DNA of 64,000 bases, from contig CAZTFF010000018.1 of assembly GCA_964612485.1 (NCBI GenBank), positions 12,598 to 76,597 on the forward strand, in the 5' to 3' direction. Positions 419 to 6,907 of the stretch are shown in pieces (the first letter of the stretch is position 1; each line of letters starts with the position of its first letter). A program made the position numbers and the translations under genes. A model generated the notes under the pieces. The model searched no databases, was not told the DNA's origin, and saw only the letters and a list, made by a program, of their open reading frames with translations. This DNA comes from an uncultured Caldilineaceae bacterium. Lineage in GTDB: Bacteria; Chloroflexota; Anaerolineae; 4572-78; J111.

Positions 419-587
419 GTTTGTTTCCTTTGGGAGAAGGTGAGTATACAACGCTATAGTTAATTTTATTAAATTCCTCTCCTTGTGTCAATGTGTTAGT
501 AGTACTGGGGTCTATCCAAGATTTTAAGACCGACCGTAGTACTGTGTGGAACATGACATAATTTCTGTAGACGAAAAATTCAACTTG

Positions 588-605
588 TGTTATCATACCG
601 TTATG
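588..605 (+). promoter_or_regulatory. Extended -10 promoter (TGtTATCAT) just upstream of ATG 603; possible leaderless start
   Basis: TG at 588-589, TATCAT at 591-596, ATG at 603-605, with no Shine-Dalgarno sequence in between. Confidence 0.3.
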
Positions 606-1403
606 TCGCAATCTCGGAAATCTAACCCCAAAGCTAAATCAGCAAAAAAGGCCGGTACAAAGGCGAACCGCCGCCAGCCGGTGTTTGTCATCACCTTCGT
701 TTTGATGGCCTTTCTGGCCGTCTGGTTTGGCGTTGATTTGTTCAGGCCGGCAGAACAACCGGTCATCAGAATTCCCCAACCCACATCGCTGGTTTCCGCC
801 GAGGGTCAAGCGGCGACTAGGGATGAAGTCGCTGCGTCCCAACCGGCCATTGATCCCAGCCAACCCCTGGTGGGGATTGTGGCCGGCCACAAAGGGTATG
901 ATCCCGGCGCGGTTTGCGACGATGGTTTAACCGAAGCCGAGGTCAATTATACCGTGGCCGAAGAAGTGGTTGATCTGTTAAGACGGCGCGGTATTGCCGC
1001 CGATTTGTTAGATGAATATGATGATCGCCTGACGGATTATCAGGCCAATGCGCTGGTCAGCGTGCATGCCGATAGCTGTAATATTCCGGGCGCGACCGGC
1101 TTTAAAGTGGCCCGCGTAACCAACAGCGCTATCCCGGAAGATGAAGATAGACTGGTGGCCTGCATCAATCAGGAATACGCTAATTATACCGGCTTGCCGC
1201 AGCATCCCGCCAGCATCACCGATAATATGACCAATTACCACGCTTTTAACGAAATCCATCCTTCAACGCCGGGCGCGATCATTGAAACAGGTTTTCTGCT
1301 GGATGATCGATTTTTGCTGGAATCCCGCCCCAAAGTGGTGGCCCGAGGCATTGCCGCCGGGATCATTTGCTTTTTGGAAGGCGGCTCTTCAACCGGAGAT
1401 TGA
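603..1403 (+). CDS. N-acetylmuramoyl-L-alanine amidase (Amidase_3 family) with an N-terminal membrane anchor
   Basis: ORF 546..1403. Motifs VGIVAGHKGYDPGA, EAEVN, VSVHADS and ETGFL are typical of AmiA/B/C-type amidases. It has a basic N-terminus and the TM helix FVITFVLMAFLAVWFGV. I prefer ATG 603 over GTG 546 as the start. Confidence 0.85.
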   Translation: MSQSRKSNPKAKSAKKAGTKANRRQPVFVITFVLMAFLAVWFGVDLFRPAEQPVIRIPQPTSLVSAEGQAATRDEVAASQPAIDPSQPLVGIVAGHKGYDPGAVCDDGLTEAEVNYTVAEEVVDLLRRRGIAADLLDEYDDRLTDYQANALVSVHADSCNIPGATGFKVARVTNSAIPEDEDRLVACINQEYANYTGLPQHPASITDNMTNYHAFNEIHPSTPGAIIETGFLLDDRFLLESRPKVVARGIAAGIICFLEGGSSTGD

Positions 1404-1463
1404 CCATCCTCAAAACCCCTGATATAATTGGGGAGTGCGATTCTCCTCTGGAGGCAGGAAATT

Positions 1464-2081
1464 ATGAAAAGTATGAGTTGCCCCTCTTGCGGCGCCCCGC
1501 TGGATATTGATAACCGTTTTGTCAAAGTTGTGACCTGTGATTTTTGCAATCAGGTGATGCTGCTGCACGACTCCGGCCTTGATCCTACCGGCCAAACCGC
1601 CAAATTAACCGAACTGCCTTCCCCGTTGTATATTGGCGCCACCGGCCAGATATTCGGCAAACCATTTGAAGTGATGGGCCGCTTGCGCTACCAATACGAT
1701 GCGGGGTTGTGGGACGAATGGTTTGTGATGTTTGATAAGGATCGCCCCGGCTGGCTGCAAGAAGACGAGGGCGAATACATCCTCTTTCACAAAGAAACCT
1801 TAACCTCGCCCGTGCCGTCGTTTGACGAGGTGGCCGTGGGCAGCGTGCTGCCGGTGGGTAAACATCGGATGTTTATCACCGAGAAGGGAACCGCGCAGAT
1901 TGCGGGCGGCGAGGGCCAATTGGCCTTCAACATCCTGCCCGGCCAGGAAGTGCGCTACCTGGACGGCAACAGCGGCGAGCAGCAAGTCAGCATCGAATAT
2001 ACCCAAAACGAAATAGAACTTTCGGTGGGGCGGGCCGTTCCCCGCGATCAGTTGGTGGTAGATGAGGAAGCGTATTGGTAA
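1464..2081 (+). CDS. Zinc-ribbon + DUF4178 domain protein (soluble paralog 1)
   Basis: ORF 1428..2081, with ATG 1464 preceded by GGAGG at 1451. CPSCGAPL...CDFCN forms the zinc ribbon. The following GRLRYQYDAGLWDEWFVMFD...GWLQEDEGEY stretch is characteristic of DUF4178. Confidence 0.8.
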   Translation: MKSMSCPSCGAPLDIDNRFVKVVTCDFCNQVMLLHDSGLDPTGQTAKLTELPSPLYIGATGQIFGKPFEVMGRLRYQYDAGLWDEWFVMFDKDRPGWLQEDEGEYILFHKETLTSPVPSFDEVAVGSVLPVGKHRMFITEKGTAQIAGGEGQLAFNILPGQEVRYLDGNSGEQQVSIEYTQNEIELSVGRAVPRDQLVVDEEAYW

Positions 2082-3260
2082 ATGGACGATTTTAATCCGC
2101 AAGACGCATTGCAAAAAGGTATCCGGGCGGCGCGGCGCGGGCATAAAGAACCGGCGCAGGCGCTGCTCACTCAGGTAGTCCAGGCCGAACCCAACAATGA
2201 GGAAGCCTGGTTGTGGCTGGCGCGGGTGGTTGACGATCCCCTGCAAAAAGCCGAATGTTTGCAGCGGGTGATAGCCCTTAATCCCGGTAATAAATGGGCG
2301 GCGGAACAGTTAAATGCCCTGCAAAGCGGTTCTGCGCCCGCTGCCGGAGCCGCACCGCCCCCGGTGCCGCCGCAAGCGCCCGGCCCCTCGGAGATGAAAT
2401 TGGAAACGCTCAGTTGCCCTAATTGTGGCGGTTCGGTTGAACTCCAGGGCGGGGCCGATATTCAGACGGTGGTGTGCAGCTACTGTGGCAGCGTGTTGGA
2501 TCTTACGCCGGAACAGGCGGCGGTTATCGGCCAAACCGATCCCAAAGTCAAACCGGTCAAACCCATTGAGCTGGGGATGGAAGGCACGTTTGAAGGCAAG
2601 TTGCATCAGGTCGTCGGCTGGGTGCGGTACCAGGGCCGGGACGAGGAAGAAACCTGGGATTGGGATGAATGGCTGCTGGTTTCGGCGGATGGAGAGTATC
2701 GCTGGCTCACCTACGATTCTGAGCAGGGGTTTCATCTCTACAAAAAAATCACGCCCCGTGAGCCGTTTGACCCCAGAACGGCCACCTCTATCAAAATACC
2801 CGGCGGCGTGGCCCGCGTGGTAGAACGAGGCCGGGCGCGCATTGTGGCCCTGGCCGGCGAGTTGACCTGGCGCGGCAAAATTGGCGATGAGATCCAATAT
2901 ATCGATGCCAAACGGGGCCGGCAGCCCTACAGCATCGAATACAGCCGCGAAGAGATTGAGCTATTGGAAGGCCACCAGCTCAACGAGAGCCAGGTGTGGA
3001 AAGCCTTTGGCCGCGAAGATTTACAGCAGCAGGCCCGCGCCCAAGCCTCGCAGCGGCGGGTGGAGTTAAAGCAGATTCAGCGAGATCACGCCCGCTCCAG
3101 CCGCAGAATTTATATGATTTTAGCCATTATTGTGATTGTCTTTATTTTTCTAGTGTGCGTCTGTGGCAGTTGTTCGTCAACCGGTGTCTTTGGCCCCTCG
3201 GTCCGGTCCGGGAGTGTGTCCGGACCCTCAACCGGCGGTGGCTTTAATTTTGGTAAATAA
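2082..3260 (+). CDS. TPR + zinc-ribbon + DUF4178 protein with a C-terminal TM helix and Gly-rich tail (paralog 2)
   Basis: The ATG abuts the previous stop (TAAATG). The N-terminal TPR-like region reads EPNNEEAWLWLARVVDDPLQKAECLQRVIALNPGN. It continues with CPNCGG..CSYCG, then WDWDEWLL (DUF4178), the TM helix IYMILAIIVIVFIFLVCVCG, and the tail SGSVSGPSTGGGFNFGK. Confidence 0.8.
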   Translation: MDDFNPQDALQKGIRAARRGHKEPAQALLTQVVQAEPNNEEAWLWLARVVDDPLQKAECLQRVIALNPGNKWAAEQLNALQSGSAPAAGAAPPPVPPQAPGPSEMKLETLSCPNCGGSVELQGGADIQTVVCSYCGSVLDLTPEQAAVIGQTDPKVKPVKPIELGMEGTFEGKLHQVVGWVRYQGRDEEETWDWDEWLLVSADGEYRWLTYDSEQGFHLYKKITPREPFDPRTATSIKIPGGVARVVERGRARIVALAGELTWRGKIGDEIQYIDAKRGRQPYSIEYSREEIELLEGHQLNESQVWKAFGREDLQQQARAQASQRRVELKQIQRDHARSSRRIYMILAIIVIVFIFLVCVCGSCSSTGVFGPSVRSGSVSGPSTGGGFNFGK

Positions 3261-3293
3261 CCTTCCAAATTTTTATAAAAGGAGAAAATTCCG

Positions 3294-3596
3294 ATGAAAT
3301 TCAAAGTATTCGTTGCGTTTGTGATCGCTTCGCTGTTACCCACGGGTATTGCGCTGGCTCAGGATGCGCCGCCTTCGGCGCGGTATGATTTGGCCTGGCA
3401 GCCGTTTGTTTCAACCATTTTATATGGTTTAGTTGGCATTTTGCTGGCGGTGTTAGGCTATTTTGTGTTTGATCGTATTTTGGGTCTGGACCTAAAACGC
3501 GAGTTGGTTGAAGATCAAAACCAGGCGCTGGGTATTATGCTGGCCGGCGTCTTTATTGGCATTTCCATTGTGGTGGGTGCCGTGATGTTGTCATAA
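3294..3596 (+). CDS. DUF350 (YjfL-like) small membrane protein
   Basis: 100 aa with three hydrophobic segments and the central motif DLKRELVEDQNQALGIMLAGVFIGISIVVG, which is typical of DUF350. Confidence 0.75.
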   Translation: MKFKVFVAFVIASLLPTGIALAQDAPPSARYDLAWQPFVSTILYGLVGILLAVLGYFVFDRILGLDLKRELVEDQNQALGIMLAGVFIGISIVVGAVMLS

Positions 3597-3605
3597 CCGG
3601 AATTT

Positions 3606-3791
3606 ATGTCATCAAAAACTGTGACGTGGCTGGCTGTCTTTTTTATCATTTGCCTGCTGTCCTGTAATTTTGTGCTGTGTGGGTTTCTTTCTTACTGGGG
3701 AACCGGCATCGCGCAGATGAGTTCTCATTCCCTCCGCACGGGCAGCGTGAGCGGCCCGATAATTGGCGGCGGGCCGAATTCGGGCAAATAA
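3606..3791 (+). CDS. 61-aa single-TM mini-protein sharing the Gly-rich C-terminal tail of the 2082..3260 product
   Basis: The Cys-rich TM helix WLAVFFIICLLSCNFVLCGF is followed by SLRTGSVSGPIIGGGPNSGK. The paralog 2 tail SVRSGSVSGPSTGGGFNFGK matches this at 13 of 20 positions. The stop at 3789-3791 lies 2 nt before the next ATG. Confidence 0.55.
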   Translation: MSSKTVTWLAVFFIICLLSCNFVLCGFLSYWGTGIAQMSSHSLRTGSVSGPIIGGGPNSGK

Positions 3792-3793
3792 TT

Positions 3794-5389
3794 ATGGATG
3801 AACGCCAGCTCAATGAAATATTGCAAAACGGAATAAAAGCCGCCCGGCGCGGCCATAAGGAACCTGCGAGGAAACTGCTCTCGCAGGTTGTTCAGGTTGA
3901 CGCCAACAACGAGGAAGCCTGGTTGTGGCTCTCGCGGGTGGCAGATGATCCGCAGCAGCAGGCGCAGTGTTTGCAACAAGTGTTGCAGGTCAACCCCGAT
4001 AATCGATGGGCCGCCGGGCAACTGGCCGAATTGCAATCCCCACCCCCGGTTTCGGGGCAGGAGGCACCGCCGCCCCTGCCCGCCGAGCCGGCAGCACCGG
4101 CACAGCCCTCGGCAGATGAAAGTAGCAGCAAATACAAGCGCATTGAACCCAAATCATCCGAATTAAAACTGGAAACCCTCTCATGCCCCCACTGCGGCGG
4201 CACGGTTGATCTTAGAAGCGGGGCCGAGGCCAAAACCATGGTCTGCAATCACTGCGGCAGCGTACTTGATCTAACCAGCGAGCAGGCCGCCGTGATCGGC
4301 CAGATGAACAAGCGCGTTCGCCCGACGATGCCCATTAAACCGGGCATGACCGGCACCTTTGAAAGCGAAACTCACCAGGTAATCGGCTGGATCCGTTACG
4401 AAGGATGGGATGATGAGGAGCGATGGCGTTGGGATGAGTGGCTGCTGGTGTCGGCCGGCGGCAAATATCGCTGGTTGAGTTATGATGCTGAGACGGGCTT
4501 CATTCTCAACGAAAAAATCCAGCCCCAGGCTCCGTTTGACCCCTACCGCGCTTCCTCAATCCAGGTGCCGGGCGGAACGGCCCAGGTGACCGAGCGTTCG
4601 CCGGCCAAGGTGCTGGCCTTTGACGGCGAGTTAACCTGGCAGTGTAACGTTGGAGATCAGTTTCACTATTTTGATGCCCAACGCGGCAGCATTCCTTACA
4701 GCGTGGAGTACAGCAAAGATGAGATAGAGGTCTACCAGGGGCAGCCGCTGGCGGATGTTGAGGTCTGGCAGGCCTTTGGCCGCGAGGATTTGGTCAAAAA
4801 AGCCGGTGAAGTATCTACCTGGAACAGCGCTTACCGGGTGCTGGCCCTCTTTTGCTTGCTGTTGGTACTTTTGAGCTGCTCCGGCGCGCTATTTACCGCG
4901 TTCACCGGCCAACAGGTGGCCCAAGAAGAGTTCCAGATGAAGCAGGGGCTGGAAGTAAAAACCATGGGGCCGATCACCCTGCCCAAATCGGATGCCGTCT
5001 ACCGGATTTCTTTAGAGTCTGGCGGCTTGCCGGTAAATACCTGGGCGGTGGTGGATGTCTCGGCTCGTGATAGCGAGGGGAACGAAGCGTATCTTTTCTC
5101 CGGCGAGTTCTGGGACGAAGAGGGGCGGGACAGCGACGGTTACTGGCACGAAAACGACCTCAACGCCGATTATCTTTTCAAACTCGAAGAGGCCGGTGAT
5201 TATTACCTGAATGTTTCGATGGAAGATGCCACGGTCACATCAATGCCGCTGACCGTCACTGTCGAACGCGGCGTATGGCTGACGCGCTACTTTATCATTT
5301 TCCTGGTGATCGCCGCCGTGCTGGCTTTTGTATTTTTTAGCCTGAGTAACCGGCGGCTGGTCGGTAGCTCACTGTTGAAATCCCAATAA
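3794..5389 (+). CDS. TPR + zinc-ribbon + DUF4178 protein with a C-terminal TM-ectodomain-TM module (paralog 3)
   Basis: Track ORF 3677..5389. I prefer ATG 3794 because MDERQLNEILQNGIKAARRGHKEPARKLL aligns with the N-terminus of paralog 2 (MDDFNPQDALQKGIRAARRGHKEPAQALL). It contains CPHCGG..CNHCG and WRWDEWLL, plus two TM helices flanking a ~170-aa region. Confidence 0.8.
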   Translation: MDERQLNEILQNGIKAARRGHKEPARKLLSQVVQVDANNEEAWLWLSRVADDPQQQAQCLQQVLQVNPDNRWAAGQLAELQSPPPVSGQEAPPPLPAEPAAPAQPSADESSSKYKRIEPKSSELKLETLSCPHCGGTVDLRSGAEAKTMVCNHCGSVLDLTSEQAAVIGQMNKRVRPTMPIKPGMTGTFESETHQVIGWIRYEGWDDEERWRWDEWLLVSAGGKYRWLSYDAETGFILNEKIQPQAPFDPYRASSIQVPGGTAQVTERSPAKVLAFDGELTWQCNVGDQFHYFDAQRGSIPYSVEYSKDEIEVYQGQPLADVEVWQAFGREDLVKKAGEVSTWNSAYRVLALFCLLLVLLSCSGALFTAFTGQQVAQEEFQMKQGLEVKTMGPITLPKSDAVYRISLESGGLPVNTWAVVDVSARDSEGNEAYLFSGEFWDEEGRDSDGYWHENDLNADYLFKLEEAGDYYLNVSMEDATVTSMPLTVTVERGVWLTRYFIIFLVIAAVLAFVFFSLSNRRLVGSSLLKSQ

Positions 5390-5392
5390 TCA

Positions 5393-6907
5393 ATGCAACT
5401 TACAACCCGCCATTCTACCTCTCTTTTGGTTACCGTTTTTATCATTGCCATCTGCGGCCTGGTGTACGAGCTGATCATCGGCACCCTTTCCTCTTATTTA
5501 TTTGGCAATACCGTTACCCATTTTTCAATCACCATAGGTTTGTTTCTGAGCGCGATGGGCATCGGCTCGTTTGCCTCGCGGCGGATCAACGATTCGTTGT
5601 TGGGTTGGTTCATCGGCGTGGAACTATCGGTGGGGCTGGTGGGGGGATTCTCGGCGGCACTGCTGTACGCGGTGTTCGCCACCACCGATGTGTACCACGT
5701 AGCCATGGTGGTGCTGATCCTCATCATAGGCAGTTTGATCGGTATGGAAATCCCCCTGCTGACCCGTTTGCTGGGCGGGTGGGACAATATCAAAGATACG
5801 CTGGCCAACGTGCTGGCCTTTGATTATATTGGCGCGCTGATTGCCTCGGTGCTGTTTCCGCTGGTTTTACTGCCGGAACTGGGCCTGCTAAAAACCGCGT
5901 TTGCCACGGGCATTCTCAATGTTTTGGTGGTGGCGCTGAACATCTGGATCTTTCGGGACCGGCTGTCCCGCTGGCGTGGGCTTTCTCTCGCAACCGGCGG
6001 CATTGCCCTGCTGTTGCTGGGGGGCGCGGTCTGGTCTAACCTGTTGACCTCCGTGTTTGAGCAGCAACTCTACAAGGATGAGATCATCTACAGCCGCCAG
6101 ACGCCCTACCAGCGCATCATTATGACCCGTTGGGCCGACGATGTGCGCCTGTTTTTAGACGGCAACCTGCAATTCAGCTCGCGCGATGAATACCGTTATC
6201 ACGAACCGCTGGTGCATCCGGCCATGTCGCTTACCCGCTCCCGGGAGTCGGTGCTGGTGTTGGGCGGGGGCGATGGGCTGGTGGCCCGTGAGGTTTTTAA
6301 GTATGATGATGTGCAGCAGCTTGTGCTGGTTGACATCGACCCGGCCATGACCGAATTGGCCCTTACCCACCCGGCCTTGCTCGACATCAACGAGGATTCG
6401 CTCAGCGATCCGCGTGTGGAGATACTCAATCAGGATGCCTACACCTACCTGGCCGACACCGGCGAGCTGTTCGGCGTCATCATCATAGATTTGCCTGATC
6501 CCAACAACGAAAGTTTGGGCAAACTCTACAGCCGCGAATTCTACAAACTGGTACACCGCCACCTGGCCGGGGGCGGTGTCATTGTGACCCAGGCTACTTC
6601 ACCCTACTACGCCCGCGAAACGTACTGGTCCATTGCCCATACGATGGAATCGGTGGGGCTGCAAACTTGGCCGTATCATATGTATATTCCCTCCTTTGGC
6701 GATTGGGGCTTTATATTGGCCGCCGGCCACGAACTGGACCCGGCCAAGTTTTTACCCAGGGTTCCCATGCGCTATCTTGATGCCGATGTCTTTCAATCGA
6801 GCCTGGTTTTTGATGATGACATTGCCGAGATCGACACCGAAGTAAACACCCTGGATAACCAGATCATTCTGACCTATTACGAGCAAGCCTGGCGGCGGTG
6901 GCGGTGA
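5393..6907 (+). CDS. Polyamine aminopropyltransferase (spermidine-synthase fold) fused behind a polytopic membrane domain
   Basis: About 200 aa of TM helices come first. They are followed by YQRIIM...DGNLQFSSRDEYRYHEPLVHPAM, VLVLGGGDGLVAREV, IIIDLPDPNN and LYSREFY, which are spermidine/spermine synthase signatures. Confidence 0.85.
   Translation: MQLTTRHSTSLLVTVFIIAICGLVYELIIGTLSSYLFGNTVTHFSITIGLFLSAMGIGSFASRRINDSLLGWFIGVELSVGLVGGFSAALLYAVFATTDVYHVAMVVLILIIGSLIGMEIPLLTRLLGGWDNIKDTLANVLAFDYIGALIASVLFPLVLLPELGLLKTAFATGILNVLVVALNIWIFRDRLSRWRGLSLATGGIALLLLGGAVWSNLLTSVFEQQLYKDEIIYSRQTPYQRIIMTRWADDVRLFLDGNLQFSSRDEYRYHEPLVHPAMSLTRSRESVLVLGGGDGLVAREVFKYDDVQQLVLVDIDPAMTELALTHPALLDINEDSLSDPRVEILNQDAYTYLADTGELFGVIIIDLPDPNNESLGKLYSREFYKLVHRHLAGGGVIVTQATSPYYARETYWSIAHTMESVGLQTWPYHMYIPSFGDWGFILAAGHELDPAKFLPRVPMRYLDADVFQSSLVFDDDIAEIDTEVNTLDNQIILTYYEQAWRRWR

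Follow-up and report, generated by a model that had tools for sequence, protein, structure and literature searches.

The stretch analysed here (the window: 64,000 nucleotides of a contig from an uncultured Caldilineaceae bacterium, genome G000) carries an operon in which two nearby open reading frames (ORFs), coding for 392 and 61 amino acids (aa), end in the same glycine-rich, lysine-terminated tail placed behind a transmembrane (TM) helix. Judged by its conservation in relatives, the 61-codon ORF is a real gene that encodes a single-TM microprotein, and versions of this microprotein accompany proteins with a DUF4178 module, a DUF350 protein and a seven-transmembrane (7TM) protein fused to a spermidine-synthase-like aminopropyltransferase (hereafter the enzyme) in several phyla. 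The explanation preferred here, to which we give somewhat less than an even chance, is that the tail would serve as the acceptor or the docking handle of the enzyme and that the microprotein and the DUF4178 proteins would belong to one complex.

The 392-aa product (paralog 2 of the DUF4178 series) ends in ...FLVCVCGSCSSTGVFGPSVRSGSVSGPSTGGGFNFGK (also given as ...RDHARSSRRIYMILAIIVIVFIFLVCVCGSCSSTGVFGPSVRSGSVSGPSTGGGFNFGK) and the 61-aa product, whose complete sequence is MSSKTVTWLAVFFIICLLSCNFVLCGFLSYWGTGIAQMSSHSLRTGSVSGPIIGGGPNSGK, ends in ...CNFVLCGFLSYWGTGIAQMSSHSLRTGSVSGPIIGGGPNSGK. In a BLASTP comparison the microprotein aligns over its full length with the C-terminal end of the 392-aa product (E = 1e-7 over 60 aa), and the last 20 residues of the two products are identical at 14 positions; the original prediction had described two tails matching at 13 of 20 positions and both ending in GK, so that its shared tail stands and its count has to be corrected by one. 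When the halves of the pair were compared in a shuffle test, the tails gave z = 9.4, none of 2000 shuffles scoring equally well, and the TM halves gave z = 0.7, which locates the similarity in the tail. The same codon is used for only 4 of the 14 identical residues; the match has therefore been kept at the protein level and is not a recent DNA copy, and a recent duplication or gene conversion between the two tails was rejected as the sole explanation on this ground. The paralog 2 tail is the sole member of the family with F instead of P at position -5 and it is without the SY.G.G motif described below, with R, S, GGG and GK all present. As had also been predicted, the long DUF4178 paralogue (paralog 3) is without a tail, its C-terminus being ...SNRRLVGSSLLKSQ, and the microprotein gene lies directly in front of it, the true start of the long paralogue (ATG 3794) coming 2 nt after the microprotein stop codon.

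An ORF of 61–62 codons with the same architecture is found at the syntenic operon of G001 and G002, both congeneric with G000, and of G006 and G009 from two other genera, and it is also conserved in another Caldilineaceae metagenome-assembled genome (MAG; L040) and in G038. In all six the ORF is intact, and the stop codons or frame shifts that were considered beforehand as a sign of a mere duplication remnant were not seen. A word-indexed search with the single microprotein returned the query itself only, and profile searches were needed: a profile from five sequences gave 23 matches at E ≤ 1e-3 among 1.84 billion representative proteins, about 20 of which are proteins of 56–85 aa aligned up to their final residue, and a second profile search with 24 sequences gave 39 clusters, including one whose name points to a MAG of the Kineosporiaceae (Actinomycetota). 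No family of Pfam or NCBIfam fits the microprotein, even at E ≤ 10, and a full-text literature search for GGGPGSGK gave no match. Additionally, a profile scan of 400 Chloroflexota genomes, taken evenly across the phylum, returned noise only (E ≥ 0.002), its best tail-like matches being neither Lys-ended ORFs nor near DUF4178 genes; on these matches, the family is patchy rather than phylum-wide in Chloroflexota.

Members of the family are about 55–85 aa long and consist of one N-terminal TM helix with a basic N-flank, an [SA]Y.G.G motif after the helix and the tail motif R.GS..GP.V.GGGP..GK, in which GK is the C-terminal end; the microprotein of the window carries SYWGTG and ...LRTGSVSGPIIGGGPNSGK, with a spacer that is one residue shorter. 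Conservation was counted over 61 distinct tail sequences, in nearly all of which the last 19 residues are free of gaps from the C-terminus. G-6, G-2 and K-1 are invariant (61/61), and R-19 (57), S-16 (59), G-13 (57), G-8 (60), G-7 (58) and P-5 (56) are kept in most. The original prediction had regarded the extreme C-terminus as a conserved signal, an idea that hung on the existence of homologous tails elsewhere; the 61 tails, their 19-residue register and the three invariant positions bear it out. Within the genus synonymous sites are near saturation (between G000 and G001, 42% of the identical residues share a codon), and the tail has been kept despite this; it is therefore under purifying selection.

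In the AlphaFold2 (AF2) model of the microprotein, residues 3–31 form a helix with a predicted local distance difference test score (pLDDT) of 87–96 and residues 32–61 a coil with a pLDDT of 38–59, and the tail of about 30 residues is predicted to be flexible. A lipoprotein reading was rejected, since 32 of 50 members contain no Cys and the orthologues of G006 and G009 are without the Cys of 'LLSC'; the Cys-rich helix, which had been pointed out as a feature of both products, is accordingly of local occurrence only. A C-terminal sorting signal of the LPXTG, PEP-CTERM, GlyGly-CTERM or PGF-CTERM type was rejected as well: here the order of elements is reversed, the TM helix coming first and the soluble Gly-rich tail after it, and no sorting-signal model of Pfam or NCBIfam matched the microprotein, in agreement with the earlier remark that the tail was not recognised as a named sorting signal.

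The microprotein is closely linked to the enzyme operon. A Lys-ended microprotein lies inside an operon with two DUF4178 genes, a DUF350 gene and the gene of the 7TM-aminopropyltransferase in 22/22 DUF4178-containing loci, 19 of the GK type and three with other tail types, which were drawn from Chloroflexota, Actinomycetota, Bacteroidota, Gemmatimonadota and Alphaproteobacteria. Among G000 and 40 relatives, the microprotein profile and the enzyme match the same 6 of 41 genomes, spanning four genera and two families and, as kin, not independent of one another, and neither is found in the other 35. The tail tracks with DUF4178/DUF350 loci in both comparisons, as the original prediction had proposed to check. 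Five metagenome loci, reached through distant microproteins (35–48% identical), contain in this order a short DUF4178 gene, a long DUF4178 gene, the microprotein gene and the 7TM-SpeE gene, and three more loci found by exact look-up have the same order, with a microprotein stop codon that overlaps the enzyme start codon; in the microprotein-seeded loci the stop codon either abuts or overlaps this start. Four enzyme homologues were picked without regard to the microprotein, and a tail-bearing ORF was found in 4/4 of their loci, in one of them as a 122-aa variant ending in ...RSVRGSRSSGGGYSGGK. In two of these four loci the microprotein gene lies in an uncalled gap of the public annotation (L082 3904-4137 and L085 5453-5647), and the family is therefore under-annotated; such a microprotein is often missed by gene callers.

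Lys-ended TM microproteins of other types occupy the same operon position on plasmids of Novosphingobium sp. ES2-1 (48 aa, ending in ...GYTGPSHK), Tritonibacter mobilis F1926 (ending in ...GGGGYLNSNRVK, an RVK end; profile E = 5e-8) and Gemmatirosa kalamazoonensis (ending in ...SSARFRHGK). What is universal is the combination of TM anchor, tail and terminal Lys, and the GGGP..GK register is that of one large subfamily.

Paralog 2 offers a natural fusion of such a tail to a DUF4178 scaffold, a Rosetta-stone link between the microprotein and this scaffold. Its residues 1–322 are 59–63% identical to the long orthologues, and after ...VWKAFGREDL it diverges, with a basic linker, one TM helix and the tail instead of TM1, ectodomain and TM2. 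It has no PF13785 match of its own at E ≤ 0.1 and is homologous to DUF4178 by transitivity, because its residues 99–319 share 59% identity (E = 7.7e-93) with paralog 3, itself a PF13785 match. Its TM helix, which may derive from the microprotein or from TM1 of a long paralogue, scores z = 0.7 against the former and z = 3.8 against the latter. Among the 41 genomes searched, paralog 2 was found in G000 only; G001, G002, G006, G009 and L040 have short and long DUF4178 genes only. When the cytoplasmic part was placed in a tree, paralog 2 came to lie outside the G000/G001/G002 clade of long orthologues (support 94/97), its position within the family being unresolved. The spacer from GP to GGG is one residue shorter in 2 of the 61 tails, those of paralog 2 and of the G000 microprotein, and the paralog 2 tail agrees with this microprotein at 14/20 positions and with the other orthologues at 10–12/20. 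On the shared deletion and the highest tail identity, the tail was copied from, or has co-evolved with, the microprotein of the same genome; the deletion common to both tails also suggests that both answer to the same partner. Because the fusion occurs in one genome only, outside the genus clade and with the shared deletion, it is, from these comparisons, the derived state, and the free microprotein is the ancestral and widespread one. It had been proposed that the TM and tail module was split off from the DUF4178 protein; the reverse is indicated, every relative having a free microprotein beside a tail-less long DUF4178 protein. An assembly artefact was rejected as the origin of paralog 2, since a 391/392-identical protein is present on an independently assembled contig.

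Charge distribution gives an indication of how these parts are placed in the membrane. The best hydrophobic 19-mer of the microproteins has a mean Kyte–Doolittle (KD) value of 2.40, and the short N-flank carries 2.08 positive charges, against 0.46 over the 12 residues that follow the helix, a bias that points to an N-in, C-out orientation. In paralog 2, a Zn-ribbon/DUF4178 module that has no signal peptide precedes RDHARSSRR, after which come the helix and the tail; the positive charges lie on the DUF4178 side, so that this tail should likewise point outward; the DUF4178 module was predicted to be intracellular by Ravi et al. (PMC11237479). An alignment of 120 homologues of the enzyme contains seven hydrophobic segments, and the parts rich in K/R (N-terminus 1.5, TM2-3 2.4, TM4-5 2.5, TM6-7 3.1) alternate with K/R-poor loops (TM1-2 0.0, TM3-4 0.1, TM5-6 0.6), which by the positive-inside rule places the catalytic domain after TM7 outside. 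We infer that the microprotein tail and the catalytic domain of the enzyme lie on the same outer membrane face.

A "spermidine synthase" fused to a membrane domain is present in thousands of bacterial genomes. According to Li et al. (2019, Biochem J 476:2579), the fusion enzyme reportedly makes no spermidine and does not complement an E. coli speE mutant, and to our knowledge its acceptor has been unknown since then. In the 120 homologues GGGDG and DLPDP are invariant (120/120). The D/E of GxG(D/E)G separates aminopropyltransferases using decarboxylated S-adenosylmethionine (dcSAM) from the fungal 7TM methyltransferase (Batth et al., PMC10349129), and by that criterion the enzyme of the window, which keeps GGGDG, is an aminopropyltransferase. 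Its closest solved structures (E = 2e-36) are Thermus-type long-chain/agmatine aminopropyltransferases and thermospermine synthase, enzymes with bulky acceptors and roomy acceptor sites.

Since the tail and the catalytic domain appear to share the outer face, the tail is a candidate for the peptide of this enzyme. That the ε-amine of the terminal Lys is the aminopropyl acceptor, or at least that the tail is a peptide gripped by the enzyme, is proposed here tentatively, as something possible but short of probable. The ε-amine, carried on a four-carbon chain like that of putrescine (it resembles putrescine or cadaverine), would accept an aminopropyl group; in a minimum version, the tail would act as a docking handle for the enzyme complex. 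As the fusion indicates, the microprotein would stand next to the long DUF4178 protein in the membrane, the cytoplasmic control or scaffold part of one complex would consist of the DUF4178 modules, and in this genome two tails would be offered to one enzyme. The fullest form of the proposal, in which the invariant Lys of the microprotein and of its fused copy is the acceptor that has been sought and the operon aminopropylates a protein lysine on the outer face with DUF4178 as control or scaffold, seems to us rather doubtful. If true, it would mean a bacterial system for protein-lysine aminopropylation on the outer face of the cytoplasmic membrane.

Several points weigh against the acceptor proposal, and the first of them concerns the donor. 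No AdoMet decarboxylase (AdoMetDC) was detected with PF02675 or the SpeD of G009 as query in G000 (96.8% complete), G001 (97%) or G002 (95%), an absence which in genomes of 95–97% completeness is not proof, and the type-A loci L076, L079 and L081 are without an AdoMetDC gene within 7 kb. AdoMetDC is present in G006 and G009, and its gene stands directly after that of the enzyme in G009 and in L082-L085. The genus of the window nonetheless keeps both the dcSAM motif and the tail in full, and the aminopropyl donor is unexplained there. Additionally, an extracytoplasmic enzyme would need exported dcSAM, and a role of the 7TM domain in export is only assumed. DLPDP retains here its second Asp, the one to which the distal amine of putrescine binds in canonical enzymes, and this has no obvious fit to a peptide-bound lysine. 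The topology is derived from charge counts, and the acceptor model is built entirely from comparative genomics and predicted topology. A Ralstonia enzyme locus is without a DUF4178 gene and without an obvious microprotein. Finally, among the tail types (GK, HK, VK) the terminal Lys alone is common, and the whole 19-residue tail is conserved, which fits a docking peptide equally well as a substrate.

This last point leads to a different explanation, possible although on the whole unlikely, in which the microprotein remains unmodified and acts as a structural or regulatory subunit whose helix packs on the long DUF4178 protein or on the 7TM enzyme. Non-covalent docking of its tail, into the beta-sandwich ectodomain or the SpeE domain, would assemble or gate the complex, and the real acceptor would lie elsewhere, for example in a lipid, a cell-wall polymer or a free amine. 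KdpF, AcrZ and MgrB, small membrane proteins that bind larger membrane proteins, are the model for such a subunit. The AF2 model of the long paralogue (mean pLDDT 81.8) comprises a tetratricopeptide repeat (TPR) part, a linker, a Zn ribbon, a DUF4178 beta barrel, a TM helix, a beta-sandwich ectodomain and a second TM helix; the ectodomain (residues 373–492, about 120 aa) is well folded between the two helices, and a fold search with the long paralogue returned generic and weak matches only, to GOLD-domain/jelly-roll sandwiches. This folded ectodomain could receive a peptide, and it is exactly what paralog 2 is without: the fusion tail stands in for the ectodomain and second TM helix of the long paralogue, which argues for a physical association. 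The conservation of the full register, and not of the Lys alone, is also what a docking peptide would show, and the operon persists in a genus without a detectable AdoMetDC. On the other hand, a C-terminal Lys that is invariant across GK, HK and VK tails exceeds what docking usually needs, the Gly-rich tail is predicted to lack structure, and in distant loci its gene mostly abuts that of the enzyme and not a DUF4178 gene.

In two proteobacterial loci, the gene directly after that of the enzyme codes for an amine-oxidase-like protein of the flavin adenine dinucleotide (FAD) type (Novosphingobium p1, L094 7442-9058; Ralstonia megaplasmid, L095 7553-9175). Both products bear twin-arginine translocation (Tat) signals, TRRSFL in Ralstonia and STRRQVL with a lipobox in Novosphingobium, and these, like the charge counts, point to amine chemistry outside the cytoplasm. 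They are among the observations that would suit a membrane-tethered carrier, a tail that holds a growing polyamine-like chain until this is set free or is trimmed by an exported amine oxidase. Precedents for it are LysW, an amino-group carrier protein whose flexible C-terminal tail bears biosynthetic intermediates, and the diatom silaffins with their lysine-linked long-chain polyamines. The flexible tail of the AF2 model and the handling of long or branched polyamines by the closest solved enzymes would also agree with a carrier. Such a role is based wholly on analogy and we consider it improbable; neither the ORF list nor Pfam gave an amine oxidase gene in the operon of the window, and AdoMetDC was not found in the genus (G000, G001, G002).

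The features of the operon are collected in Table 1. Orthologues of the short DUF4178 protein come first in every related operon. In the window, a TTG codon at 1428 lies inside the promoter-like site, therefore ATG 1464 is the likely start of this first gene, and the genes follow one another closely, with a TAAATG junction at 2079-2084 and 3 nt before the enzyme gene.

Table 1. Features of the operon in the window, and microproteins of other types in the named loci.
Feature	Position	Strand	Basis and remarks
Amidase_3 (N-acetylmuramoyl-L-alanine amidase) gene	546-1403		Pfam; directly upstream of the operon
Strong promoter-like site TTGACC, 17 nt, TG-TATAAT	1400..1428	+	11/12 sigma-70-like consensus matches; consensus match only
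Short soluble Zn-ribbon + DUF4178 protein	1464..2081	+	PF13785, E = 1.1e-14
Paralog 2 (392 aa)	2082..3260	+	TPR + Zn ribbon + DUF4178-like part fused to one TM helix and Lys-ended tail
TM helix of paralog 2	3108..3173	+	Sequence and alignment; preceded by the basic stretch RDHARSSRR
Paralog 2 tail, SVRSGSVSGPSTGGGFNFGK-COOH	3198..3257	+	R, S, GGG, GK kept
DUF350 (YjfL-family) membrane protein	3294..3596	+	PF03994, E = 2.4e-13
Microprotein (61 aa, Lys-ended)	3606..3791	+	Predicted helix 3-31, predicted flexible tail 32-61
Microprotein tail, SLRTGSVSGPIIGGGPNSGK-COOH	3729..3788	+	R, S, G, GGGP, G, K at fixed distances from the C-terminus
Long DUF4178 paralogue (paralog 3, 531 aa)	3794..5389	+	PF13785, E = 8e-14; no tail
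7TM-fused spermidine-synthase-like aminopropyltransferase (504 aa)	5393..6907	+	PF01564, E = 1.2e-36; seven N-terminal TM helices
Other-type microprotein, Novosphingobium	L094 5527-5673		Same operon position
Other-type microprotein, Tritonibacter	L097 5534-5728		Same operon position
Other-type microprotein, Gemmatirosa	L096, ORF ending 5677		Same operon position

The amidase gene directly upstream of the operon, which has a counterpart near the G006 locus, brings in the cell wall. In Braun's lipoprotein (Lpp) the ε-amine of the C-terminal Lys is linked to peptidoglycan by L,D-transpeptidases, and by analogy the terminal Lys of the microprotein, a small envelope-anchored protein with this residue invariant on the predicted outer face, might be a covalent attachment point that tethers a membrane complex to the wall. 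We regard this as very improbable: the microprotein co-occurs with an aminopropyltransferase and with no transpeptidase, the amidase is outside the conserved gene set of the other loci, and the family spans phyla with very different envelopes.

Other neighbours were seen in individual loci. A gene for RimK, an ATP-grasp ligase extending a protein's C-terminus, immediately precedes the operon in two unrelated loci (L083 1701-3195 and L084 1-1015), beside a RimB-like gene in L083; RimK could be another C-terminus-acting enzyme near the operon. In G006, a gene of the arginase/agmatinase family, a polyamine-pathway family, lies between the operon and the amidase gene (L037 2515-3429). In the type-A loci L076, L077 and L081, DUF2617 and DUF350-like genes follow just after the enzyme on the opposite strand, and the DUF2617 gene agrees with the DUF2617 variant in Ravi et al. 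(PMC11237479).

Among known systems, Lpp resembles the microprotein as a small envelope-anchored protein with an invariant C-terminal Lys, and its function needs the ε-amine of that Lys; unlike the microprotein, with its TM anchor, Gly-rich disordered tail and other gene context, Lpp is a helical trimeric lipoprotein. Alkylamine groups on the ε-amine of a protein lysine are known from deoxyhypusine on eIF5A/aIF5A and from the long-chain polyamines of silaffins. Deoxyhypusine synthase uses spermidine and NAD, not dcSAM, and we know of no enzymes established as modifying silaffins; unlike the system proposed here, neither is bacterial, membrane-bound or extracytoplasmic. Gene clusters of AdoMetDC, a membrane-protein/SpdSyn-like fusion and DUF350 were reportedly described by Li, Kurihara, Kim, Liang and Michael in 2019, apparently with no mention of a microprotein. 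They share the fusion enzyme and DUF350 with the present operon, and L082-L085 and G009 match them further in having AdoMetDC after the enzyme, unlike the genus of the window, in which AdoMetDC was not found.

The SpdS-like domain of METTL13 is grouped here with the fungal enzyme NHMT as a related known system. NHMT has 7TM fused to a SpeE fold and methylates secreted proteins at their N-terminal His (Batth et al., 2023, Nat Commun, PMC10349129), and it is thus a precedent both for the architecture and for the modification of a protein terminus on the secretory side. Unlike the enzyme of the window, which keeps GGGDG, NHMT has Ile for the D/E of GxG(D/E)G and uses SAM as methyl donor; its target is an N-terminal His and the proposed target here is a C-terminal Lys, and its 7TM domain has no detectable bacterial sequence relatives (PMC10349129).

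The closest published description is an operon with a 7TM-spermine/spermidine-synthase fusion, YjfL/DUF350, DUF4178 and a 'LipoSIG + Ctha_1186 + low-complexity' lipoprotein, exemplified by the PSP-associated SO_3765 region of Shewanella oneidensis (Ravi et al., 2024, mSystems, PMC11237479). Comparative genomics links the fusion enzyme to envelope-stress (PSP-type) operons, and 'aminopropylation of other substrates' was proposed by Ravi et al., citing Li et al. 2019 (PMC11237479). The operon of the window has the same enzyme architecture, DUF350, DUF4178 and a small partner, anchored in the envelope, whose C-terminal part is of low complexity. It differs in having no PspA/CesT pair, in having two (here three) DUF4178 genes, and in a small partner that is a TM microprotein of about 60 aa and not a lipoprotein with a Ctha_1186 domain; the Lys-ended tail is not described in Ravi et al. 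(PMC11237479). A defined Lys-ended peptide on the predicted catalytic face makes the acceptor question experimentally addressable, and versions of the same gene set are present in cultured bacteria (Tritonibacter mobilis, Novosphingobium and Gemmatirosa). What is new in the window is the natural fusion of DUF4178 and the tail, the one-residue deletion shared by the two tails, and a genus that keeps the system without a recognisable AdoMetDC.

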